Source: Vulcanimicrobiales bacterium
GTDB lineage: Bacteria > Vulcanimicrobiota > Vulcanimicrobiia > Vulcanimicrobiales > Vulcanimicrobiaceae
Direction: 5' to 3'
Assembly: GCA_038231455.1 (NCBI GenBank)
Contig: JBBRLI010000026.1
Span: 1-42,128, forward strand
Length of the DNA stretch: 42,128 nt
The position numbers and the translations under genes are program-made. Positions 5,564-42,128 of this stretch are shown one piece after another. The stretch's first letter is position 1; the number at the start of each line of letters is the position of its first letter. The notes below the pieces were generated by a model, which did no database searches, was not told where the DNA came from, and was given only the letters and a program-made list of their open reading frames with translations.

Positions 5564-7684
5564 CTAAACGGCTTGGTGCCGCTTGAGGAAGATCTGCTGC
5601 GCATCGACGCGTTTTTCGCCCGGTAAGATGCCGCGGCGCTCGTAGCTGCCGTCGGCGTTGAGGACGCGGGCCTTCACGTTGTCCGCTAAGAGCACGTCCA
5701 TGATCTCATTGCAGATGATGTCCCCGAGCTCGACGTCCAGCACCGGCACGACGGTCTCAACGCGGCGGTCGAGATTGCGGCCCATCCAATCGGCGCTGCC
5801 CATATAGACTTCGCGGTCGCCGCCGTTGTTGAAGATGAACGCGCGCGAGTGCTCGAGGAAGCGTCCGACGATGCTGCGCACGCGGATCGTCTCGCTCACG
5901 CCCGGAACTCCCGGCCGCAGCACGCACATGCCGCGGATGATCAAGTCGATCGGCACGCCCGCGCGCGAGGCTTCGTACAGCGCGCGGGTGATGCGCGCGT
6001 CGCTAATGGCATTCAACTTCGCAACGATACCGCTCGGACGTCCGGCCCGCGCGTGTTCGGTCTCGCGCTCGATCAATTCCATGAAGCCGGTCCGCAAGCC
6101 GGCGGGTGCGACGAGCAGTTCTTCGTACGTGGTGGCCTTCGAGAAACCGGTGAGCGAGTTGAAGAGCTGGGTGACGTCGGCGCCCAGGATCGGACGGCAC
6201 GTGAACAGCGAGAGATCGGTATAGATTTTCGCGGTCTTGTCGTTGTAATTGCCGGTGCCAAAGTGCATGTAGCGGCGGATACCTTCGGGCTCGTTCCGCA
6301 CCACGAGCGTGACTTTTGCATGCGTTTTCAGTCCGGCAAAACCGTAGACGACGTGCGCGCCGACGCGCTCCAAGTTGCGCGCCCAGTGGATATTGTTTTC
6401 TTCATCGAAACGCGCTTTGAGTTCGATTAGCGCCGCGACTTGCGTGCCGTTTTCAGCCGCGTCGATCAGGGCCGAGACGACCGGCGAATCGCCGGAGGTG
6501 CGATACAGCGTCTGCTTGATCGCGAGCACGTTCGGATCGGCGGCCGCTTGACGTACGAACTGCACGACCGGATCGAACGAGTCGTACGGGTGGTGGAGCA
6601 GCAGATCGCCTTCGCGAATCGCGGCGAAAATGTCGTTCGTCCCGACCAGGCGCTTGGGGATCGACGGCGTGAATGGCGGATCGTGCAAACCCGGCTCATC
6701 GACGCTCACGAGCGTCCACAGATCGGAGGTCGCGAGCATCCCCTTCATCGGATAACAGTCGATCGGCGAGAGCGACAGCTCATCGAGCAGCATGTCGCGC
6801 AACGCTTCGGGCATCCCGTACTCGACTTCGAGCCGCACGGGTTCGCCAAATCGGCGCTTGCGGAGCTCCGATTCGATCATCGCAAGCAGATCGTCGGCTT
6901 CGTCTTCCTGCAGATCGAGATCGGCGTCGCGCGTCACACGGAACGTGTAGGACGCCTTCACCGTCATCCCGGGGAAGAGTTCGCTCAAATTATGCGCGAT
7001 GATATCTTCGATGAGCACAAACCAGCGCTGGCCGTCGGGCGCGTGATCGATCGGCACGTAGCGCGGCAAGGTCTGCGGCACTTTGACGCGCGCAAAATAC
7101 GCGGTCTGCCCCTCATCGAGCGTCTCTTCGAGTTCGACGGCAAGCGAGAGCGAAAGATTGGAGATATACGGAAACGGATGACCGGCGTCGATCGCAAGGG
7201 GCGTGAGCACGGGAAACACGCGCTCCATGAAAAACGCTCCCAGCGCCGCCTTATTCGTGGAATCCAGGTGATGATAAGCAAGAATTCTGATGCCGTGGCG
7301 TTCGAGCGCCGGCAGGAGGGCGTTTCGTAAGCAGTCCATCTGGCGGTCGACCGACACGCGCAGGCGCTCGGAGATCGCAAGCAGCTGCTCTTCCGGCAGC
7401 TGGCCGTCGTCAGAGCGTTTGTGGATCTCCGCTTCGACCTGTTGTTTGAGCCCCGCGACGCGGATCATAAAGTACTCGTCGAGGTTGGTCCCGTAAATTG
7501 CGATGAACTTCAAGCGTTCGAGCAAGGGGTTGCGCTCGTCGAGCGCTTCCTCAAGAACGCGGTCATTGAACTCAAGCCACGAAAGCTCGCGGTTAATGTA
7601 TAAGCTCGGATCGTCCAGCGATAGCGCGGCAGCAAGCGGCTGCGGTCGGCCCTGCGCTTCGACCTCGGAACGTCCGGTAATCAT
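5564..7684 (-). CDS. ppk1: Polyphosphate kinase 1
   Basis: YINRELSWLEFNDRVLEEA, NLDEYFMIRVAGL, HPFPYISNLSL, LLHHPYDSF, IKQTLYRT, ELKARFDEENNI, KTHAK, GTGNYN, GRFLEHSR, SADWMGRNLDRRVE. Start ATG 7684 is inferred. Confidence 0.97.
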   Translation of the reverse strand: MITGRSEVEAQGRPQPLAAALSLDDPSLYINRELSWLEFNDRVLEEALDERNPLLERLKFIAIYGTNLDEYFMIRVAGLKQQVEAEIHKRSDDGQLPEEQLLAISERLRVSVDRQMDCLRNALLPALERHGIRILAYHHLDSTNKAALGAFFMERVFPVLTPLAIDAGHPFPYISNLSLSLAVELEETLDEGQTAYFARVKVPQTLPRYVPIDHAPDGQRWFVLIEDIIAHNLSELFPGMTVKASYTFRVTRDADLDLQEDEADDLLAMIESELRKRRFGEPVRLEVEYGMPEALRDMLLDELSLSPIDCYPMKGMLATSDLWTLVSVDEPGLHDPPFTPSIPKRLVGTNDIFAAIREGDLLLHHPYDSFDPVVQFVRQAAADPNVLAIKQTLYRTSGDSPVVSALIDAAENGTQVAALIELKARFDEENNIHWARNLERVGAHVVYGFAGLKTHAKVTLVVRNEPEGIRRYMHFGTGNYNDKTAKIYTDLSLFTCRPILGADVTQLFNSLTGFSKATTYEELLVAPAGLRTGFMELIERETEHARAGRPSGIVAKLNAISDARITRALYEASRAGVPIDLIIRGMCVLRPGVPGVSETIRVRSIVGRFLEHSRAFIFNNGGDREVYMGSADWMGRNLDRRVETVVPVLDVELGDIICNEIMDVLLADNVKARVLNADGSYERRGILPGEKRVDAQQIFLKRHQAV

Positions 7685-7702
7685 CGGAACGGGGTTCGCC
7701 GC

Positions 7703-8308
7703 TTGACGGCAGACTTCATCGCCCACCTCGGGACGCATGTGGCGCTCGCGATCTCAGCGCTCCTCGCCGCGCTCATCATCGGCATTCCCCTCGCCGCCGC
7801 GATCGCCGACCGTAACCGGCTTCGTTCCGTAACGCTCGGCGCGACCAACGTGATACGCGTGATCCCGAGCCTCGCCGTTCTCGTTCTCGCGTTGCCATTT
7901 CTTGGGGTCGGTTTCCGCCCAGCTCTCCTGGCCCTCGCGCTGCTCGCGATTCCCCCGATCGTCATCAACACGGACCTTGGATTGCGATCCGTCCCCGCGC
8001 CGCTCTTAGAGGCCGCGCGAGGTCTCGGCATGACCGCCGATCAGATCAGCCGACGCGTTCGTTGGCCGCTGGCCGCACCGGTGATTCTGGCGGGCATCCG
8101 CACGGCAGCCGTCGAGGTCATCGCAAGCGCTACACTGGCGGCCTTCATCGGTGGCGGTGGTCTGGGCGAGTACATCGTCGATGGCCTCGCCAACCAAGAC
8201 TATGCCGAGTTGCTTACCGGCGCTCTTGCCGTTGCGACGCTCGCGATTCTCACCGAACTCGCCCTCGGCGCGCTCACGCGCCGCCTCACCGCCAAAGGAC
8301 AACCATGA
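7703..8308 (+). CDS. Osmoprotectant/betaine ABC transporter permease
   Basis: IPSLAVL, EAA loop (LLEAARGLGMT), ATLAAFIGGGGLGEYI; OpuBB/OpuCB type. Confidence 0.9.
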   Translation: MTADFIAHLGTHVALAISALLAALIIGIPLAAAIADRNRLRSVTLGATNVIRVIPSLAVLVLALPFLGVGFRPALLALALLAIPPIVINTDLGLRSVPAPLLEAARGLGMTADQISRRVRWPLAAPVILAGIRTAAVEVIASATLAAFIGGGGLGEYIVDGLANQDYAELLTGALAVATLAILTELALGALTRRLTAKGQP

Positions 8309-9189
8309 AACGCGCTCAGGCTCTCACGCTTCTCGGCTCCGCCGCGCTCGCCGGATGCGGCGGCGGTGGCAGCACGCAAACCATCGCGATCGGTTCAAAG
8401 AATTTCACCGAAGAACTCATCATCGGCGAGATTTATGCGCTCGTCCTCGAGCAGCAAGGGTTCAAAGTGAATCGCAAGCTCAATCTCGGTGGCACCGAGA
8501 TCGCGCAGGCGGCACTGGTGCGCGGCGACATCGACCTCTATCCCGAGTACACGGGCACCGCGCTGATCGACGTGCTCAAACTTCCCGTTCAGCACGATGC
8601 CGCCGCGATCTATTCAACGGTGAAGTCGGCATACGAGCAAAAATTTCAGTTGACGTGGCTCGACCCCGCGCCGTTCAACGATTCGCAAGGTCTTGCAACG
8701 ACCAAAGCGATCGCCGCAAAATACAACCTCAAGACGCTCAGCGATCTCAGCCGCGCAGCATCGCAGCTGCGCCTCGGCTCGATCCCCGAATTCGTCAAGC
8801 GTCCCGATGCATTACCGGGCTTGCAAAAAGCGTACGGCGGATTCGTCTTCAAGGACATCAAGCTCTTCGATATCGGCTTGAAGTACAAGGCGCTGCTCTC
8901 CGGCGCCGTCGATGTCGTCGTTGCTTTTACAACCGAAGGCGCGCTCTCATCGGACGATCTTGTGGTCTTCGTCGACGACAAGCATTTCTGGCCGACGTAT
9001 CAAGTCGCGCCGGTGATCCGGCAAGCGACGCTCAAGGCGATGCCCGCGATCGCAACGCATCTCAACAAAGTTGCGCCGAACCTCTCGGATGCAACGATGC
9101 GCGAACTCAACAACATGGTCGACGGCACGCAGAAGCGCGACGCCGCGGACGTGGCACGCGAATTCGTGAAGACGCACGGCCTCGTCTAG
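8305..9189 (+). CDS. Betaine-type ABC transporter substrate-binding lipoprotein (OpuCC/OsmF/EgtU-like)
   Basis: Lipobox LAGC; GSKNFTE, YPEYTGT, EFVKRPDALPGL, DDKHFWPTYQ; ATGA overlap with the permease. Confidence 0.9.
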   Translation: MKRAQALTLLGSAALAGCGGGGSTQTIAIGSKNFTEELIIGEIYALVLEQQGFKVNRKLNLGGTEIAQAALVRGDIDLYPEYTGTALIDVLKLPVQHDAAAIYSTVKSAYEQKFQLTWLDPAPFNDSQGLATTKAIAAKYNLKTLSDLSRAASQLRLGSIPEFVKRPDALPGLQKAYGGFVFKDIKLFDIGLKYKALLSGAVDVVVAFTTEGALSSDDLVVFVDDKHFWPTYQVAPVIRQATLKAMPAIATHLNKVAPNLSDATMRELNNMVDGTQKRDAADVAREFVKTHGLV

Positions 9190-9190
9190 C

Positions 9191-10135
9191 GTGGATGCAA
9201 TCGCGATGGCCGGTGTTGGGGTCCGCTATCCAGGTTCCGCAACACCGGCCGTGCATGACGTGAGCCTCACGATCCCGACGGGCGAACTCGCCGTGTTCCT
9301 CGGGCCGTCCGGCTGCGGCAAGAGCACACTCCTACGCACGATCAACCGACTCATCGAACCGACGGACGGGACGATCCACGTCGACGGCACCGAAGTGCGC
9401 GCGCTCGATGCAGTCCAGTTGCGCCGTCGCATCGGTTACGTGATCCAGGCCGTCGGTCTTTTTCCGCACCTGACGATCGCGCAGAATATCGCCGTCGTCC
9501 CCGAACTTCTCAACTGGCCCAAGGCCAAGATCGACGCGCGCGTCGACGAATTGCTCGCACTCGTACGTCTGGAACCGGCGCGCTATCGGGCGCGACTCCC
9601 GCGCGAACTCTCCGGCGGCGAGCAGCAGCGCGTCGGGGTCGCGCGCGCACTCGCCGCCGAACCGTCGATTATCTTGATGGACGAGCCGTTCGGCGCGGTC
9701 GATGCGATCGTGCGGGCGACGCTGCAAGACGAAGTGTGCCGCATCCATCGCACGCTCGGAACGACGATCGTCTTCGTCACGCACGACGTCGATGAAGCGC
9801 TCAAAATCGCCGACCGTATCGTGGTGATGAACACCGGAACGATCGTTCAAGCCGATACGCCGCTCGCAATGCTCACGAAGCCCGCATCGCCGTTCGTCGC
9901 GCAACTGCTCGATGCGGGCGATACCATTCGACGTCTGGGACTAATCGGCGTTGCACAAGCGATGCGTGCGGAGATCGTCGCACAGAGCACGGTTACGGTC
10001 GACGCAAAGGCAACCTTACGCGAGGCGCTCTCCGCACTACTCGGCGGAATCGAACGCATCGATGTCTTACGCGACGGTGCGCGCATCGGTTCGATCGGCT
10101 TTGATGATGTCCGTCGTGCGACAAGCGCCGCATGA
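9191..10135 (+). CDS. Osmoprotectant ABC transporter ATP-binding protein
   Basis: Walker A GPSGCGKST, LRRRIGYVIQ, LSGGEQQR, MDEPFGAVD, VTHD; degenerate CBS-like tail. Confidence 0.93.
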   Translation: MDAIAMAGVGVRYPGSATPAVHDVSLTIPTGELAVFLGPSGCGKSTLLRTINRLIEPTDGTIHVDGTEVRALDAVQLRRRIGYVIQAVGLFPHLTIAQNIAVVPELLNWPKAKIDARVDELLALVRLEPARYRARLPRELSGGEQQRVGVARALAAEPSIILMDEPFGAVDAIVRATLQDEVCRIHRTLGTTIVFVTHDVDEALKIADRIVVMNTGTIVQADTPLAMLTKPASPFVAQLLDAGDTIRRLGLIGVAQAMRAEIVAQSTVTVDAKATLREALSALLGGIERIDVLRDGARIGSIGFDDVRRATSAA

Positions 10136-10743
10136 CCTATCTCTTCGGGCATTTCGGCATCGTCGCACAACTCGCCGGAGAACATCTGGCGCTCGTTGCA
10201 ACCGCGCTCGTCATCGCTCTTGCGATCGCCTTCCCACTGGGCATTCTCGCCGCGCGCAGCGAGCGCGTAAGCACGCTCACGCTTGGCGCGCTCGGTGCGC
10301 TTTACGCAATACCCTCACTCGCGCTCTTAGTGTTGCTCGTTCCCATCTTGGGGCTCGGCTTTTGGACCGCGGTCGTCGCGCTCGTCACCTACGCGCAGAT
10401 GTTGCTCGTGCGAAACATCGCAATCGGACTACGTTCGGTACCCGCGGCGCAAATCGAGGCCGCAAAGGGCATGGGCATGACGTCGGCACAGCGTCTGATA
10501 CGAGTCGAAATCCCGTACGCGCTGCCGATCGTTGTCGGCGGCCTCCGAATCGCAACGGTCTCGCTGATCGCGATTGCAACGGTGGCGGCATTTATCAATG
10601 CCGGGGGCTTAGGGACGTTGATTTTTGCAGGCATTCATCAAGACGATCCGCAGCGAACGATCGCCGGGAGCATGGGCGCGGCCGCACTCGCGATCGTTGC
10701 GGACGCATTCTTTCGCACACTCGAACGCCGCCTCAGAGCTTAA
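10132..10743 (+). CDS. Osmoprotectant/betaine ABC transporter permease
   Basis: IPSLALL, IEAAKGMGMT, ATVAAFINAGGLG; ATGA overlap with the ATPase. Confidence 0.9.
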   Translation: MTYLFGHFGIVAQLAGEHLALVATALVIALAIAFPLGILAARSERVSTLTLGALGALYAIPSLALLVLLVPILGLGFWTAVVALVTYAQMLLVRNIAIGLRSVPAAQIEAAKGMGMTSAQRLIRVEIPYALPIVVGGLRIATVSLIAIATVAAFINAGGLGTLIFAGIHQDDPQRTIAGSMGAAALAIVADAFFRTLERRLRA

Positions 10744-11546
10744 AGGGCGGGTCGCTTTTCCGCAAAATCCTCAGACGCTTTGCGAGGCTCTTCGATCGTC
10801 ATATAGACGACTAGCGCGACGATGACCGTGAGAAAGACCACGCTCGTCGAGGTCGTTCCAAAGCCGAGACCGCCGTCTGCTTTGGCTTGCGAGAACAGGT
10901 CGCCGAGCGATGCACCGAGCGGACGCGTCATGATGTAGGCGATCCAGAACGCAAGGACGCCGTCGATCTTGAAGACGAAATATGCAAGGGCCGTGAGCGC
11001 GATGACCCCGGCAAAGAGGAGCGCCGTGAGCGGGTAACCGAGTTTGCTTGCCTCCGAGATGAGATCACCGGCCGACGTACCCAGCGCGAATGTGAAGAGG
11101 ATCGCCGCCCAATAGAAAAGTTCGCGTTTCGTCGTAAAGATCGCGTGCACGGAGAGCGTTCGTTCGCTGAACCACCACGCCAGGAAGACCACCGCAAGAA
11201 TGCTCGCGAAGATCGCCGTCGAGGTTTGCAATCCCATACCGAGTTTGTCGACCAGCAGATCGGAGGTGAGCGTGCCGACAACGCTGATAGCAACCACTAC
11301 GAACCAGTAAACCGCCGGCACGTAGCGTTTAAGGCTAAGCTGAACGAGCAGTGCCACGACGAACACGCCCGTCATCACAAGCGACGTATTTTGCAAGCCA
11401 AATTTCAGCGTCGTGTTGAGATAATCTGCGACCGTTTCTCCAACCGTTGTCGCGAATATCTTGATGATCCAAAAGAAGATCGTCACTTGCGGGACTTTAT
11501 TGAGCATCGCGCCCAACGTCGGACGTGCGTCAAAGGATGGTTGCAT
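10740..11546 (-). CDS. COG4705 / DUF347-repeat membrane protein
   Basis: NKVPQVTIFFWIIKIFATTVGET, ELFYWAAILFTFALGTSAGD, FWIAYIMTRPLGASLGD, GGLGFGT. Confidence 0.88.
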   Translation of the reverse strand: MQPSFDARPTLGAMLNKVPQVTIFFWIIKIFATTVGETVADYLNTTLKFGLQNTSLVMTGVFVVALLVQLSLKRYVPAVYWFVVVAISVVGTLTSDLLVDKLGMGLQTSTAIFASILAVVFLAWWFSERTLSVHAIFTTKRELFYWAAILFTFALGTSAGDLISEASKLGYPLTALLFAGVIALTALAYFVFKIDGVLAFWIAYIMTRPLGASLGDLFSQAKADGGLGFGTTSTSVVFLTVIVALVVYMTIEEPRKASEDFAEKRPAL

Positions 11547-11575
11547 GCTGGCCTTATCGCCCCTCGGGCAAGAAG

Positions 11576-12331
11576 CTACACATTAATCTCCGGTGAACCG
11601 GCGAAGCGTTCGCGCGCGGCAGCGATCAGAGCAGCGAATAGCGCCGCTGAGGGCGCGTCGACGGCGACCGTTGCTTCGGGATGCCACTGGACGCCGAGAT
11701 AAAATGGGTGGTCGAACGTTGCCTCAATCGCCTCGATCGTACCATCCGAACACCGGCCCACGACGCGAAACGCCGGGGGCACCTCGCGCGCGGCTTGATG
11801 ATGGACGGAGTTGGTTGACAGGCTCGTGATACTCATGATGCGGGCAAGCGAAGCGTTTGCTTCGAGCATCACGACATGGTGGGGAGTCAGCGCGTAGCAA
11901 TCCGCACCGTCCACCGTCTGAGAATGCAAAGCGTACGCAGCGCCCCGGTCGCTCGGCAAATCTTGATAGAGCGTGCCACCGAAGAGCACGACTGCCGCCT
12001 GCATTCCGCAGCAGATACAAAGCGTGGGTAGACCTCGGATGCGCGCGTGCGCGAGCGCCGCGAATTCGAATGTGTAACGTGCCGGATCGTGCGGGTCGTT
12101 TCGCGCCGGATAGCGCTCGTCTTCGCCGTAGCGGCCGGGATCGACGTCGACGCCACCAGTAACGAGTAAACCATCGAGCCCGTCAAGCACATCGCGGTCG
12201 TCGTGATACAGCGCGATCGGCGCACCACCCGAAATCTCGATTGCCTCGACGTATGCGCGTAGTTCCGCATGATCGCGCGGCTCGACGCCGCGCACGATCG
12301 ACGAGGTGATCCCGATCCGGGGCCGACTCAC
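11576..12331 (-). CDS. Peptidase C26 / PuuD-like gamma-glutamyl hydrolase (class I glutamine amidotransferase)
   Basis: RPRIGIT, LDGLLVTGGVDVDP, ICCGMQ nucleophile elbow, GGTLYQD, NSVHHQA, GVQWHPE; GTGA overlap with the egtD stop. Confidence 0.9.
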   Translation of the reverse strand: MSRPRIGITSSIVRGVEPRDHAELRAYVEAIEISGGAPIALYHDDRDVLDGLDGLLVTGGVDVDPGRYGEDERYPARNDPHDPARYTFEFAALAHARIRGLPTLCICCGMQAAVVLFGGTLYQDLPSDRGAAYALHSQTVDGADCYALTPHHVVMLEANASLARIMSITSLSTNSVHHQAAREVPPAFRVVGRCSDGTIEAIEATFDHPFYLGVQWHPEATVAVDAPSAALFAALIAAARERFAGSPEINV

Positions 12332-13329
12332 TCGACGAGCAGTAAGCTCAGCGCGTAACGGCCAGCCGCGTCGGTGAACGTCTTGCGTTCGCTAAAGCCG
12401 CAACGCTTCGCGAGCGCGACGATCTCGGCGGGGGTAAACTTGTACGAGGACTCGGTGTGAATCGGCTCGCCCTCCGCAAACGGGACGGTAAGATCGAGTT
12501 CGCGCAGCACGACCTGCTGCTTCTTCGCCGAGACTAAGAACGAATCGACGCAGCCGCGCACCGGATCGTACTTCGCGGTGAACCGAAATTGGCCGAGATC
12601 GAAGTCGCCGTCGAACTCACGGTTGATGCGCGCGAGCAGATTTTTGTTGAACGCTGCCGTGACGCCAATCGGGTCATCGTACGCCGCTTCCAGGATCGTC
12701 GCGTCTTTTTTCAGATCGTATCCAACGAGCAGACCGTCGCCGGTCTTGAGCGCCGATGCGAGCAATTCGAGCAGCGTGCGCGCGGCGTGCGGTTCGAAGT
12801 TGCCGATGTTGGAGCCAAGATACAGTGCGAGCACGCGATCTTGTGTTGCGAGTTCGCGCTGGCGAAGAAGTGAAAAGTAATCGGCGGCGTACGCCTGAAC
12901 GACCAAACTCTCGTGCGAGGCGATGAGCGCAAGCGACGATTCCATCAGCGCATCGGGCGAAATTTCGATCGGATGATACTTCAGCGATTTTTGTTTTTCG
13001 AGAATCGCCTCGATGATGATCCGCGTCTTCGTCGCGCTTCCACTGCCGAGTTCGACGAGTTCGAGCGGCGCTCCGAACGATGCCACGATCTCGCGACCGT
13101 ACGTCGCGAGCAGATCGCGTTCGACGCGCGTGAGATAGTATTCCGGAAGGCGCGTGATCGCCTCGAAGAGCGTCGACCCTAAATCATCGTAAAAATATTT
13201 CGGCGCAAGCGTCTTCGGGATTGCGGTCAGGCCGCGGCGCACGTCTTCGCCGAACGTGGCGATCCGTGCCGGGTGCGGATCGCGGTAGATGGTCAGACGG
13301 TCGGTCACCGCGGTCAGCGTGGAATCCAT
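12328..13329 (-). CDS. egtD: L-histidine N-alpha-methyltransferase (hercynine synthase)
   Basis: KTLAPKYFYDDLGSTLFEAITRLPEYYLTRVE, ELGSGSATKT, LGSNIGNF, AYDDPIGVTAAFNKNLL, IHTESSYKF. Confidence 0.92.
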   Translation of the reverse strand: MDSTLTAVTDRLTIYRDPHPARIATFGEDVRRGLTAIPKTLAPKYFYDDLGSTLFEAITRLPEYYLTRVERDLLATYGREIVASFGAPLELVELGSGSATKTRIIIEAILEKQKSLKYHPIEISPDALMESSLALIASHESLVVQAYAADYFSLLRQRELATQDRVLALYLGSNIGNFEPHAARTLLELLASALKTGDGLLVGYDLKKDATILEAAYDDPIGVTAAFNKNLLARINREFDGDFDLGQFRFTAKYDPVRGCVDSFLVSAKKQQVVLRELDLTVPFAEGEPIHTESSYKFTPAEIVALAKRCGFSERKTFTDAAGRYALSLLLVE

Positions 13330-13448
13330 GAAAACCTCATTTGGGGCACTCGTCGAGCAGAACAACCTCAGACGGGAATGTGTTGCGTGCCCGCGTATCT
13401 GCGGATTCCCACGTTTTCACAAGCGCAATCGAGGAGGCACTCCCAACC

Positions 13449-14198
13449 GTGCAGACTTCCCAGTTCACGATTACCGTCGGTGGCACCGCGATGCCGGTGT
13501 ACCTGGCCCGGCCGGACGGTGATGAACCCAAAGGTGCGGTAATCGTGCTGCAAGAGATCTTCGGCGTCAATACGGAGGTCAAGCGGATTACCGATCTCGT
13601 GGCGGCAGCCGGCTACGTTGGCATTGCCCCGAACTACTACTACCGCACGCACCCCGACCTCAACGTTCCTTATACGAACGAAGGCCTCGCCAAGGGCTTT
13701 GAGGCGGCGGGGCAGGTCACGCTCGACAACCTCAAGACCGACCTCCAGGCCGTCATGGACTACCTCAACAGCCAGGCCTATGTGAAGACGAACCACATCG
13801 CGACGTGGGGCTTCTGCTTCGGCGGGACCGTCGCGTTCATCAGCTCGATGATGCCGGGCCTCTCGGCAGCGGTTTCGTTCTACGGCGGCCACATCGCCCA
13901 AGCGCTTCCCAATAGTGATTTCGTGCCGGCCGATCACGCGGCCGAAGTCCGTGCCCCGCTACTGCTTGTGTTCGGCGGCAAAGATGCGTATATTCCGCAA
14001 GAAGCCGTCGACAAGATCGAATCGAGTCTCAAAGCAGCTGGCAAACGATTTGAGGTGCAAGTGTATCCGGATCAAGACCATGCCTTCTTCCGCGATAGTT
14101 CAGAAGCGATGACCGGAGATTCCGGCGACGCGCTTTCGCGGGACGTCTCCGATGCGTGGGAATGCGTGCAAGCCTTCCTTGCGGCGCACCTGACGTGA
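13449..14198 (+). CDS. Dienelactone hydrolase family protein (intact Cys-Asp-His triad)
   Basis: GAGGAGG RBS before GTG 13449; VIVLQEIFGVN, GFCFGG, SFYG, GGKD, DHAFF. Confidence 0.9.
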   Translation: MQTSQFTITVGGTAMPVYLARPDGDEPKGAVIVLQEIFGVNTEVKRITDLVAAAGYVGIAPNYYYRTHPDLNVPYTNEGLAKGFEAAGQVTLDNLKTDLQAVMDYLNSQAYVKTNHIATWGFCFGGTVAFISSMMPGLSAAVSFYGGHIAQALPNSDFVPADHAAEVRAPLLLVFGGKDAYIPQEAVDKIESSLKAAGKRFEVQVYPDQDHAFFRDSSEAMTGDSGDALSRDVSDAWECVQAFLAAHLT

Positions 14199-14920
14199 TC
14201 AGCGAGCACGTCGCGATTCCAGGCCCGCACGGCCCAATCCCCGCCTATGTCGCGCGCCCCGATTTTGGCGTTCACCCGGCGGTGATCGTTCTCGAGGGTG
14301 TGTACGGATTCGACGACGAGCTCAAACGCATTACGGATCTTGTTGCAAGCGCGGGCTATGTCGGCTGCGCGATCGACTATTTCCACCGCAACGGCTCGAC
14401 GTTCAGCGCGCCTTTCACCGAAGAAGGGCGCGCGCAAGGCGTCGAGGCGTCCAAGAAAATCTCAAAGTCCGAACTGCGCGAGGACGTCGCCGCGGCGGTC
14501 GATTGGCTCAATTCGCAAGACGTCGTCGAGCACGGCGATATCGCGACCTGGGGATTCGGTTTCGGCGGAACGGCCGCGTTCGTCAGCGCGACGCTCCCGG
14601 GGCTCAAAGCCGCCGTTGTGTTTTACGGGCAGAGTATCGGCAAGCCGATGCCAAGCGGTGATCCCGCTCCGCTCGAAGATGCCGCGACCTTACGTGCGCC
14701 GCTGTTGCTTGTTTTCGGCGGACAAGATGAATTGATCGAAGCAAACGACGTGGAACGGATCGCCTCCGTCTTGACGCAGCATGGAAAAAAATTCGACCTC
14801 CAGATGTATCCAAACGTGGGGCACTCGTTCTTCCGCGATACCTCCGACTCGGTTGCCGCGCGCGAAGCGGCCGATGCCTGGGATCGCGTCCAGGCGTTTT
14901 TGCGCTCGCGTTTCGACTAG
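14195..14920 (+). CDS. Dienelactone hydrolase paralog lacking the catalytic Cys (GFGFGG)
   Basis: GTGA overlap with the upstream gene; shares ELKRITDLVASAGYVG, IATWGFGFGGT, LRAPLLLVFGGQD, GHSFFRD and ADAWDRVQAFL with it. Confidence 0.88.
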   Translation: MISEHVAIPGPHGPIPAYVARPDFGVHPAVIVLEGVYGFDDELKRITDLVASAGYVGCAIDYFHRNGSTFSAPFTEEGRAQGVEASKKISKSELREDVAAAVDWLNSQDVVEHGDIATWGFGFGGTAAFVSATLPGLKAAVVFYGQSIGKPMPSGDPAPLEDAATLRAPLLLVFGGQDELIEANDVERIASVLTQHGKKFDLQMYPNVGHSFFRDTSDSVAAREAADAWDRVQAFLRSRFD

Positions 14921-39348: not shown

Positions 39349-39989
39349 TCGGCCTGTAAACGATTGCGCATTTGCCACTCAACCGGGCTCGGAAAAAAGT
39401 AGATGATCGGCGTGACCGCATAGACGATAATGCTCGAGGTAATGCTGACGTACGAGAGCAACCCACCGATCGTGTACAACACCGGGTACATGATCCCGCG
39501 AATGGTCGAGAGTCGGAGCGCCCACGTGGGTGCTCCGCTGCGTTCGTCCATGTTGTGCGTACGACGCACGTGCGCGAAGAGCACGTTGAAGGCAACGCCG
39601 GTGGCCGCGAACGTGAGCCCGTAAAGCATCACGATGGGTTGCAAGGTGCCGTACTTTGCAATGAGCGCGGTTGGGAACGAGATGAACGATACAAAGAGCA
39701 ACAGGACCAGATTGAGCACGAGCGTCACGCGGTCGAGACGCCGAAGCGCGTGAAAGACCGTGTGGTGGTTCATCCAGATCAGTCCGATCACCATAAAACT
39801 TGTGATGTACGCTAAAAAGATGCGCCACTCACCGAGCAGCGCATTCACGGCATCCGTGCCGCTAAAGGGTTCCTTGAGTTCGGGGACTTTTATTTCCAAC
39901 ACCAGCAGCGTTGCGGCGATCGCGAAGATGCCGTCGCTAAAGGCTTCGAGGCGGTTCTTGCTGAGAATCTCGCCGACGGGTTCGCTCAC
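39345..39989 (-). CDS. TMEM175 family (DUF1211) potassium channel
   Basis: RLEAFSDGIFAIAATLLVLEI, SFMVIGLIWMNHH, FISFPT. Confidence 0.92.
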   Translation of the reverse strand: MSEPVGEILSKNRLEAFSDGIFAIAATLLVLEIKVPELKEPFSGTDAVNALLGEWRIFLAYITSFMVIGLIWMNHHTVFHALRRLDRVTLVLNLVLLLFVSFISFPTALIAKYGTLQPIVMLYGLTFAATGVAFNVLFAHVRRTHNMDERSGAPTWALRLSTIRGIMYPVLYTIGGLLSYVSITSSIIVYAVTPIIYFFPSPVEWQMRNRLQAD

Positions 39990-40681
39990 CCGAGACTGTC
40001 GTGAAAATCGACGTCGACGTGGGTGCCGTCGCAGAATGGCTTGTTCGAAGATTTTCCGCAGCGGCAGAGTGTCTGTCGATTGCGTACCTCGTACGCTTGG
40101 CCGTCTTGACCGATCACCTGAATGCCGCCGCGCACCCAGAGTGGTCCGCCACTGTTCTTCGCTGGATCTTCCGTCACGCTAATCGATTGTGCGAGCTCCG
40201 GTTCGATCGCCGCGTCCGTCGCCTTGTTACGGAGCACGAGGCGGCCGGAGGGACAACTCACGCCTTCGTGGATCGTGGTCTGCTCTTTCTCGCCGCCGGT
40301 CGCTTCCGTCACGAGTTGCCAGATCGTGCCGTCGTTATCGCAGAAGCGTGCGAACGCGCAGAGCACGTCGGCATCCTGCAGCTCCATCAGGGGTCCGTCG
40401 ATGGTCTTCGCTTGTTCGACGAACGGTTTGTGCGAGGCAGTTTCTTTGCCGTCCCATTCGACTCTGGCATGCGTGCCGTCGCAATACGGCTTGGTTGCCG
40501 ACTGCCCGCAACGGCACAGCGCGTATTTCTCTTTGGTTTCGAAGGTCTGACCCGGCTCCCACGTCCACGATCCGCCATCGGCTTTCGTGCCAATCGTCTC
40601 GACGTTCAGCGGAACCGAACCGGAGACGAGATAGGGGCCGTTGGGGGCAATTACAATCTTAGAGGCGTTTGTGTCTGCCAT
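39986..40681 (-). CDS. CDGSH iron-sulfur protein with central divergent 4Fe-4S domain
   Basis: NGPY, LCRCGQSATKPYCDGTH, LCAFARFC..CPSGRL, LCRCGKSSNKPFCDGTH; own TATACT -10 lies 8 nt before ATG 40681. Confidence 0.92.
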   Translation of the reverse strand: MADTNASKIVIAPNGPYLVSGSVPLNVETIGTKADGGSWTWEPGQTFETKEKYALCRCGQSATKPYCDGTHARVEWDGKETASHKPFVEQAKTIDGPLMELQDADVLCAFARFCDNDGTIWQLVTEATGGEKEQTTIHEGVSCPSGRLVLRNKATDAAIEPELAQSISVTEDPAKNSGGPLWVRGGIQVIGQDGQAYEVRNRQTLCRCGKSSNKPFCDGTHVDVDFHDSLG

Positions 40682-40755
40682 GTCCGCCGAGTATACGAGT
40701 AAGCCCACTGCTGAGGCAAGCGGGTTCCACAAAGAAACTACCCCGCCAACGGTCC

Positions 40756-41655
40756 TTACTTCAGATAACGATCTAAATAAGCAAGCCGGCCTTCGTAGAG
40801 GTCGGTTCCGCGCACGATATCGCTTGGGTAGTGCCCGCACCGGATAGGCGACAAATTCGGCCGTCTTCCCATTGTCGATGAGCGCGTGATACATCTTGTA
40901 GGATTCTGTGATCGGCACGCGCGCGTCGCCGACATCGGAGAGAATGAGCACGGGACAGGTGACGTTTGCCGCGTACGTGAGCGGCGATTGTGCGACGTAG
41001 TCGGCCATGTTCCCCGTAAACGGCGAGTCTTTGTAGCTATACGCTCCGGTGACGTTGCCGTCGGAGAGCGCGTATTCATCGACTTGATCGTTGACGGCCG
41101 CGCCGGAGATCGCGACTTTCCAAATGTGGTAGTGACCGATCAGCCACGAGGTCATGTAGCCGCCGTACGACCAGCCCGAAACGCCAATCCGTTTCGTATC
41201 GATCTTGACGTGTTTATCGAGAGCCGCGATACCCGCCATCACGTCTTTGACCGGACCGTCGCCTGCGTCGTTATAGATTGCCCGCTGGTAGGCGTTGCCG
41301 AGGTTATCACTCCCACGATAGTTGGGCTCAAAGACGATGTAATCGTGCGCGGCGATGAGTTGTGGGAACGAACCGAACGAGCGTTCCGAAGCGTATTGCG
41401 GTCCACCGTGGATGTAGAGTACGAGCGGGTACGCACGCGCGGGATTGTAACCCAGCGGGTACGTGACGACTCCGTATTCGTGGAAACCGTTTGGACCGTT
41501 CCAATCGATTGCTTCGTTGCGCCCAAGCGCGACCGTTTTGGGCAACGCGTCGTTGAGATGCGTGAGCTGACGCGGCGCGGCGCTGGGCGATGTAAGATAG
41601 TAGAGTTCGGTTTGGTGGAGCGGTGTGCTGCCGGGGAACGCGATCGCACCGTGTT
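40756..41655 (-). pseudogene. S9 family (acylaminoacyl/dipeptidyl) peptidase, C-terminal remnant, frameshifted
   Basis: PLVLYIHGGP, PNYRGS, GWSYGG, DARVP. The catalytic His segment GHYP..YLDRYLK is in a different frame after about 40835. The 5' part is replaced by IS3 sequence. Confidence 0.85.
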
Positions 41656-41987
41656 GCTCGCACGTTTGACCCTAGCGTGATCGGCGGAGTTAATCGCGTT
41701 TGGGCCGGCGACATCACCTACTTGCCCACGCGCGAAGGTTGGATGTATTTGGCAGTCGTGATTGATTTGGGTTCGCGACACGTTGTTGGTTGGTCGATGG
41801 CCTCGAAGATGCGCGATGACCTGGTAATCGCAGCTCTCGATTCAGCTCTCGCTGCTCGGCGACCAAATGACGGTACGATTTTCGATTCAGACCGCGGCTG
41901 GCAGTATGCAAGCGATGACTTTCGTGCTGTAGCGAAACGCCATGGATTGACGCTCAGCATGAGCGCAAAAGGCGACTGTTGGGACAA
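41653..41987 (+). mobile_element. IS3-family transposase (rve integrase core) internal fragment
   Basis: NRVWAGDITYLPTREGWMYLAVVIDLGSRHVVGWSM, SDRGWQYAS, SMSAKGDCWDN; no left end visible. Confidence 0.9.
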
Positions 41988-42128
41988 CGGAATGTGTCAA
42001 TGGGTTTGAGGCCACCGGCTATGCGGCTTGAGTGGATTCGGGTCGGTTGATGTAGGCGATGTTTGCGAGCGCCGGTGGCTCCGGTTGACCGCGAACGAAA
42101 CGTTCCGGGTGCTTGGTAAAGGCGTGAT
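41988..42128 (-). mobile_element. Right end of a second IS (IS3-family-type transposase C-terminus, CDS 42019 to >42128)
   Basis: Minus strand reads HAFTKHPERFVRGQPEPPALANIAYINRP..stop, a typical transposase tail, followed by the IR-like CTCAAACCCATTGACACATTCCG. Confidence 0.72.

Follow-up and report, generated by a model that had tools for sequence, protein, structure and literature searches.

Gene content and layout of the locus

The window analyzed was a stretch of 42,128 nucleotides (nt) from a Vulcanimicrobiales bacterium (contig JBBRLI010000026.1, positions 1 to 42,128 of the forward strand; assembly GCA_038231455.1, 106 contigs, 93.7% complete, G000 below). The locus studied (7703 to 13329) contained egtD, the gene of the hercynine-forming L-histidine N-alpha-methyltransferase, a gene for a Peptidase_C26 (C26) hydrolase coupled to it, and an ATP-binding cassette (ABC) importer facing both. 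Its seven genes formed two convergent units, three on the minus strand and four on the plus strand. On the minus strand, egtD (12328..13329) started at an in-frame ATG (13329) with GAGG 6-9 nt upstream, and stopped at TGA (12330-12328). The C26 gene (11576..12331), encoding a class-I glutamine-amidotransferase-like hydrolase of the PuuD family, ran from a GTG start at 12331 to a TAG stop at 11578-11576, and the GTGA at 12331-12328 was common to its start and to the stop of egtD. After a gap of 29 nt (11575-11547) followed the gene of a DUF347 (COG4705) polytopic membrane protein (10740..11546; ATG 11546, TAA 10742-10740).

The plus-strand unit consisted of an OpuCB-like permease 1 (open reading frame, ORF, 7703-8308; PF00528, 89.8 bits), an OpuAC-family substrate-binding lipoprotein (8305..9189; PF04069, 218.9 bits; LAGC lipobox), a ProV/OpuCA-like ATPase (9191..10135; PF00005, 129 bits; TIGR01186 proV, 303.5 bits, cut-off 326.6) and an OpuCD-like permease 2 (10132..10743; PF00528, 83.5 bits). 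The best NCBIfam matches of permease 1 were choline/ProW permeases, each below cut-off. The start of the binding protein was placed at 8305, where residue 82 of ORF 8062-9189 is a Met that precedes a lipoprotein-type signal ending in LAGC. The palindromic TTAA at 10740-10743 ended both convergent units and contained the stop codons of the DUF347 gene and of permease 2. The region from 7400 to 13700 held two promoter-like and three terminator-like sites, no more than shuffled sequence did. Among sequencing data sets containing 10600-13500, none of RNA was listed, and the single DNA set listed may be the source sample.

The initial annotation had described the overlap of egtD with the C26 gene (GTGA, 12328-12331), the COG4705 membrane gene 29 nt after the C26 gene, the convergence of this unit on an OpuC/OsmF-type importer and the absence of egtA, egtB, egtC and egtE from the window, all of which were confirmed.

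EgtD

EgtD passed the equivalog cut-off of TIGR03438 (324.6 bits; cut-off 290.9), and scored 334 bits with PF10017. Its best solved match was the mycobacterial EgtD 4uy6 (E = 4.8e-67), and it aligned end to end with the mycobacterial EgtD structures. In the HMMER alignment to 4uy6, the position of Met252, a specificity residue, was occupied by Ser. A passage of PMC8593015 names Tyr39, Phe47, Tyr56, Thr163, Asn166, Ala205, Tyr206, Thr213, Glu282 and Ser284 as histidine-site residues; nine of these ten were retained in the same alignment, and Thr163 was replaced by Asn. Judged by family membership, the window's EgtD is a genuine histidine methyltransferase, predicted to form hercynine.

Two surveys were made, the first of 41 related genomes in three families of one class (f1, the window's family, f2 and f3), and the second of 151 genomes of the window's family (EgtD at E ≤ 1e-50, C26 at E ≤ 1e-28, adjacency by comparison of coordinates). 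EgtD was present in 40 of the 41 genomes and in 144 of the 151.

Other ergothioneine genes of the genome

A whole-genome family search found a single EgtB-like sulfoxide synthase in G000, on contig C14 and outside the window. It contained DinB_2 and FGE-sulfatase domains and no methyltransferase domain, and its best model, ovoA_Nterm (240 bits), stayed below cut-off. Its solved matches ranked EgtB-IV 8vih (198.8 bits) above OvoA 8khq (151.7) and EgtB-I 4x8b (137.5). The three iron-binding His positions were kept, as was an NWF motif (R-N-W-F aligned with 8vih). According to a passage of PMC11030361, the NWF motif marks EgtB-IV, OvoA having Y/F-A-F there, and EgtB-I, -II and -IV couple cysteine to hercynine. 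By its sequence, the C14 synthase is of the EgtB-IV type, an assignment that covered some of the 17 positions of the composite motif. An EgtB-IV-like gene occurred in about 33 of the 41 related genomes. Liao and Seebeck reportedly found in 2017 that EgtB-IV prefers free cysteine over gamma-glutamylcysteine.

EgtC (TIGR03442) had no match anywhere in G000. A normal egtC, which the initial annotation had listed as contrary to its reading of the C26 enzyme, was thus not found in this genome, but egtC was invariant among the relatives as well (over cut-off in 0 of 41; best 28.2 bits against a cut-off of 218.65), and the anticorrelation with egtC suggested by the initial annotation had no variation to draw on. 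As to glutamate-cysteine ligase, GCS2 and GshA were without a match in G000, and likewise in G001, in G005 (one closed contig, same operon), in G011 and in G023. The eukaryotic GCS also had no match in G000, a result without weight, the same search being blank in all 14 control genomes. No dedicated EgtE gene was found in G000, the EgtE-like aminotransferases encoded on other contigs being weak matches below threshold, and no ATP-grasp or other ligase adjoined egtD or the EgtB-IV gene in that genome. With a synthase of the EgtB-IV type and no gamma-glutamylcysteine ligase, there would therefore be no gamma-glutamyl group to remove. By its type, the sole sulfoxide synthase of the genome is predicted to be a cysteine user in kind, a result that the initial annotation had itself listed as contrary to its proposal for the C26 enzyme.

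The two-enzyme route of EgtD and EgtB-IV (8vih; as set out in a part of PMC11030361) was matched by an EgtD over cut-off, a stand-alone OvoA-like synthase with NWF, and the lack of EgtA and EgtC. The window genome differed from it in having egtD and the synthase on separate contigs, a coupled C26 gene and no dedicated EgtE.

The C26 hydrolase

The C26 protein scored 160.4 bits with PF07722 (gathering score 20.5) and 103 bits with the PuuD model NF008471, whose equivalog cut-off is 266, and was not a PuuD equivalog. Its best solved matches were 3fij (Lin1909) and 6vtv (PuuD, the E. coli gamma-glutamyl-gamma-aminobutyrate hydrolase), with which it shared the Pfam family, the length and the Cys-His-Glu triad (Cys107, His217 and Glu219, invariant in alignment A1). 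It differed from PuuD in its score below the equivalog cut-off, in the lack of puu genes nearby, and in a Cys for the near-invariant Arg after the nucleophile: residue 108 (window 12010-12012) was Cys, and Arg in 10 of the 11 aligned homologues (CICCG vs CICRG). The protein looks like an intact and active PuuD-family hydrolase of gamma-glutamyl amides with a Cys-His-Glu triad, and its substrate would most likely be an ordinary gamma-glutamyl amine or peptide.

A close C26 homologue lay directly after egtD in 7 of the 41 relatives, all in the window's family. Of these seven loci, which were read for spacing, six were tight (-4 nt, the GTGA overlap, in four, and one each at +4 and +8 nt), and the last had a gap of +43 nt. 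In the larger survey, C26 was found in 47 of the 151 genomes, and hence not at E ≤ 1e-28 in 104. It was right after egtD in 28 (26 without the unpublished G070 and G114), elsewhere in 18, and separated from egtD by an S9 peptidase gene in one. The adjacency exceeds chance, and the operon is real and old within the window's family. The conservation of the egtD-C26 neighborhood expected by the initial annotation thus stood for part of the family (28/151), but C26 was not found in most genomes with EgtD. Among 80 C26 loci from many phyla, EgtD was found in the flanks (up to 4 kb) of none, in a sample from which near relatives of the window were possibly missing; two of these loci were Eremiobacterota in a lexA context.

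In f2 and f3, C26 sat in a string of lexA, C26, an EIIC-like gene (PF02378), a PF06838 gene and a PilZ gene (e.g., L063:5221-9773; loci L061-L073). The same string was present in G000 (G000:C43:2053-5540) with the C26 slot empty, lexA leading straight into the EIIC-like gene. Maximum-likelihood trees of C26 grouped the proteins by the three families, and within f1 the egtD-linked rows were basal to two clades whose genes had other neighbors, a LuxR-type regulator in one case. From the family-wise trees and the synteny of the lexA operon, C26 is therefore one class-wide ortholog line that switched operons.

The importer

The importer was found within 8 kb of egtD, and convergent with it, in 28 of 33 related loci in three families; three of the five misses were on short contigs. 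It is the importer that is the lasting partner of egtD. The genes in the slot between the two in other genomes were a phosphoesterase, a MarR regulator, a GMC oxidoreductase, a glyoxalase and other unrelated genes. According to section 7 and Table 1 of PMC13674229 (Abbott et al. 2026), OpuB/AfProX-like ABC genes are among the commonest neighbors of sulfoxide synthases (5.4-13.6%), and the type of pairing seen between egtD and the importer is in this respect already tabulated.

With its OpuAC binding protein and ProV-like ATPase encoded in one operon with two BPD_transp_1 permeases, the importer had the layout of the OpuC/OsmF type. The binding protein, the sole one of the OpuAC type in G000 by tblastn, scored 172.8 bits with the OsmF model, below the cut-off of 400 for an OsmF equivalog. 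Its solved matches were Thermoanaerobacter OpuBC-derived sensors, followed by 8dp6, OpuCC, Lmo1422, EgtUC and AfProX. The four-gene layout was shared with Bacillus OpuC/OpuB, OsmF/YehZ and AfProX, and the K-x-F and EYTGT motifs with AfProX. With EgtU/EgtUV (S. pneumoniae 7txk, H. pylori, L. monocytogenes BilE) it shared the OpuAC-fold domain (E of about 1e-42 to 1e-44) and the transporter family, and differed from them in having four separate genes without a permease-binding fusion.

In a passage of Zhang et al. (PMC9732360), the ergothioneine determinants of EgtU are Gly244 and a Phe293/Tyr337 switch, and the AfProX state is Phe and Tyr/Phe. The corresponding motifs of the window's protein, K113-N-F115 and E-Y163-T-G-T, did not vary in any of 29 class homologues and gave Phe for EgtU Gly244 and Tyr for Phe293 in a mapping by position (offsets to AfProX/EgtUC match ranges and motif, and not residue alignment to EgtU). 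As read from these residues, the binding pocket is in a glycine-betaine-like (AfProX) state and not EgtU-like. Glu243 and Arg247 were spaced like Glu375 and Arg379 of EgtU. The first hinge (residues 205-209) read F/M-N-D207-S/T-Q209, in contrast to F-N-N-T-Y in the Thermoanaerobacter relative; one cage Tyr was lost (Gln209) and the cage-base Asn was Asp207 in 28-29 of the 29 homologues. An EgtU ortholog was sought in two Streptococcus genomes, and the match was an OpuCC-like stand-alone protein (L160), which reads N-D-S-A at the first hinge. The Asp207/Gln209 hinge may mark an unstudied ligand class. The importer would be an OpuC-type quaternary-amine uptake system, the candidate substrate being a betaine, possibly hercynine.

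Interpretation

The preferred reading, to which a probability of about 0.6 is given, is that egtD belongs to the hercynine-forming end of a cysteine-dependent route to ergothioneine with two enzymes, with the C26 hydrolase as an accessory or passenger and an importer of the OpuC type whose pocket is unlike that of EgtU. By the families of its enzymes, EgtD would trimethylate histidine, the EgtB-IV-type synthase from the other contig would join cysteine to hercynine, and a general pyridoxal-phosphate C-S lyase would complete ergothioneine. A cysteine route has no gamma-glutamyl intermediate, and no EgtC-like step would therefore be needed; the C26 enzyme is probably not a missing step of the pathway. 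Gene order, tree and the overlapping stop and start suggest that C26 moved under the egtD promoter in an ancestor of the window's family and would be co-expressed with egtD as an accessory or passenger. It is read as a passenger because most genomes with EgtD had no C26 there, and because the C26 of the sister families was without egtD. The DUF347 gene would have been inserted later, in one genus only.

Several observations weigh against the preferred reading. Across about 20 genera, with C26 identity at just 40-57%, the two genes still overlapped by GTGA or lay no more than 8 nt apart; such retention of spacing resembles the effect of selection for co-expression, and a mere passenger would have no need of it. 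A YbdK-family carboxylate-amine ligase (GCS2) occurred in 12 of the 28 operon genomes vs 17 of the 123 others (29 of 151 in all), a contrast that is overstated by the relatedness of the genomes, and is the pattern expected of a pair that makes and breaks a gamma-glutamyl bond. The window genome and the closed G005 had no YbdK ligase, and therefore the egtD-C26 operon cannot depend on it. In G082 the order was egtD, S9 peptidase and C26 (L170:2037-5886), and the same type of S9 gene followed egtD alone in three other genera (G013, G016 and G017), which may point to a module of hydrolases linked to egtD. The preference of EgtB-IV for cysteine over gamma-glutamylcysteine, finally, was taken from one passage of PMC11030361 and from the reported finding of Liao and Seebeck.

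The proposal of the initial annotation that the C26 enzyme replaces EgtC as a non-orthologous hydrolase, removing glutamate from gamma-glutamyl-hercynylcysteine sulfoxide, was not borne out and is regarded as very improbable. The coupling to egtD, the lack of EgtC over cut-off in all 41 relatives, the cleavage of gamma-glutamyl bonds by C26-family enzymes, and the YbdK-family ligases of the operon genomes (a family reported under the name of a weak Glu-Cys ligase) speak for it, and plant GGP1, which acts on glutathione conjugates, is a precedent for a C26-type enzyme. The mycobacterial EgtC of egtABCDE also cleaves a gamma-glutamyl amide with a Cys nucleophile and has its gene beside egtD, but it is a class-II N-terminal nucleophile (Ntn) hydrolase, to whose fold the class-I triad of C26 is unrelated. 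Against a replacement of EgtC stand the lack of a GCS2 or GshA match in G000, G001, G005, G011 and G023, a synthase of the EgtB-IV type and not of the gamma-glutamylcysteine-using type I, the failure to find C26 in 104 of 151 genomes of a family in which 144 had EgtD, and an ortholog that adjoins lexA, and not egt genes, in sister families likewise without EgtC. In addition, Table 1 of PMC13674229 has no gamma-glutamyl hydrolase among the families beside sulfoxide synthases. It is unlikely that C26 serves some accessory branch in the metabolism of histidine betaines or thiohistidines, in which the S9 peptidase and a YbdK-type ligase would join it in some genomes and it would, for example, free histidine or a thiohistidine from a gamma-glutamyl conjugate. 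Such a role would account for the retention of the operon over many genera, the S9 gene orders and the enrichment of YbdK in operon-bearing genomes, and section 10 of PMC13674229 gives gamma-glutamyl-2-thiohistidine (thioglutine) as a compound that bacteria do make. The alpha-nitrogen of hercynine and ergothioneine is quaternary, however, and cannot bear a gamma-glutamyl group; elsewhere this C26 line belongs to a lexA operon, no ligase adjoins egtD or the EgtB-IV gene in G000, and the YbdK contrast counts related genomes as independent.

Uptake of ergothioneine or hercynine by the importer, instead of ordinary osmoprotectants, is a tentative alternative, held at somewhat less than even odds. 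The salvage role put forward in the initial annotation may be read from synteny, the importer being convergent on egtD in three families in spite of the variable slot between them, and the sole OpuAC-type binding protein of the genome, the tabulated OpuB/AfProX-like neighbors of sulfoxide synthases and the EgtU-like spacing of Glu243 and Arg247 agree with it. It was weakened by the binding protein, which had neither of two EgtU determinants: Phe115 and Tyr163 are both in the glycine-betaine state, and Gln209 for a cage Tyr and Asp207 for the cage-base Asn fit neither pattern, with the residues mapped by position and motif. The importer and egtD were, moreover, convergent and not co-transcribed. 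The widest alternative joins these elements, egtD heading a hydrolase module (C26, S9 in some genomes, a YbdK ligase elsewhere) that makes and breaks a gamma-glutamyl conjugate of a histidine- or cysteine-derived intermediate, and the importer with the Asp/Gln pocket representing a new class of hercynine or ergothioneine binding protein. This alternative is quite unlikely; if true, the module would add a third way to manage the supply of sulfur donor or scaffold for ergothioneine.

No published account of an egtD-C26 operon was found in the literature on ergothioneine/EgtD gene clusters and EgtB-IV. If C26 is a passenger, the window would come from an ordinary EgtD/EgtB-IV ergothioneine producer in the little-studied phylum Eremiobacterota, and the lesson would be that a gene may be tightly and translationally coupled to one of a pathway without encoding any step of it, which the tracing of orthologs in sister lineages exposes. 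Why the egtD-C26 overlap lasted in about 20 genera, and what ligand is bound by an importer with invariant Asp207/Gln209, are questions worth a bench test.

The DUF347 gene

The DUF347 protein matched PF03988 with four repeats (199.4 bits), and had seven hydrophobic windows, some of them overlapping, in about five distinct segments. It was found in 9 of the 41 genomes, and adjoined egtD-C26 only in the window genome and its congener G001. In the seven other relatives it was located elsewhere, with an identity of 58-76% (65-76% for six, and 58% in a short match for G022), above the approximately 50% of EgtD across the same genomes. It is taken as a recent, genus-level insertion into the variable slot. 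The patchy yet highly conserved occurrence of this gene (window 10740-11546; L175-L177) suggests lateral movement.

Neighboring genes and other loci

The importer side was flanked by ppk1 (5564-7738), divergent from permease 1, whose TTG at 7703 overlapped the ppk1 start (7738); the true start of permease 1 is probably downstream of 7738. In f2 (L046-L050), ppk1 and egtD shared a strand, ppk1 lying directly upstream with about 11-70 nt between the blast matches. It was located beyond the importer in the window's family, and ppk1, importer and egtD remained neighbors through the rearrangement. On the other side, two tandem dienelactone-hydrolase-family genes (window 13341-14920) were divergent from egtD. 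The TTG at 13341 was only 11 nt from the egtD start, and the true start of that hydrolase is probably further in. Homologues of these hydrolases adjoined egtD in most loci of the window's family, a neighborhood that the sister families did not share.

A gene of the S9 prolyl-oligopeptidase family, with PD40 repeats, followed egtD in the same direction at L036:5878-7953, L039:8876-10999 and L040:5737-7848. The egtD of G082 matched in two pieces and may be frameshifted. Membership of the YbdK family (NF010039, 495-505 bits, over cut-off) was established for the three ligase loci classified (G015:C9:99134-99970, G112:C13:288944-289780 and G121:C2:2033247-2034086), and an arginase gene was close to the ligase in two of the three loci read. 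Glutamine-synthetase-like paralogs were rejected as a ligase partner of C26, with two copies in most genomes with or without C26 and no contrast. The lexA-(C26)-EIIC-PF06838 'Met_gamma_lyase/YnbB'-PilZ string was conserved across the class.

Farther along the window, an S9 peptidase domain was fused to two CDGSH iron-sulfur zinc-finger domains (39986-41545), an unusual combination, and an integrase core (rve) ORF (41623-42009) was located at the window end, near the end of the contig.

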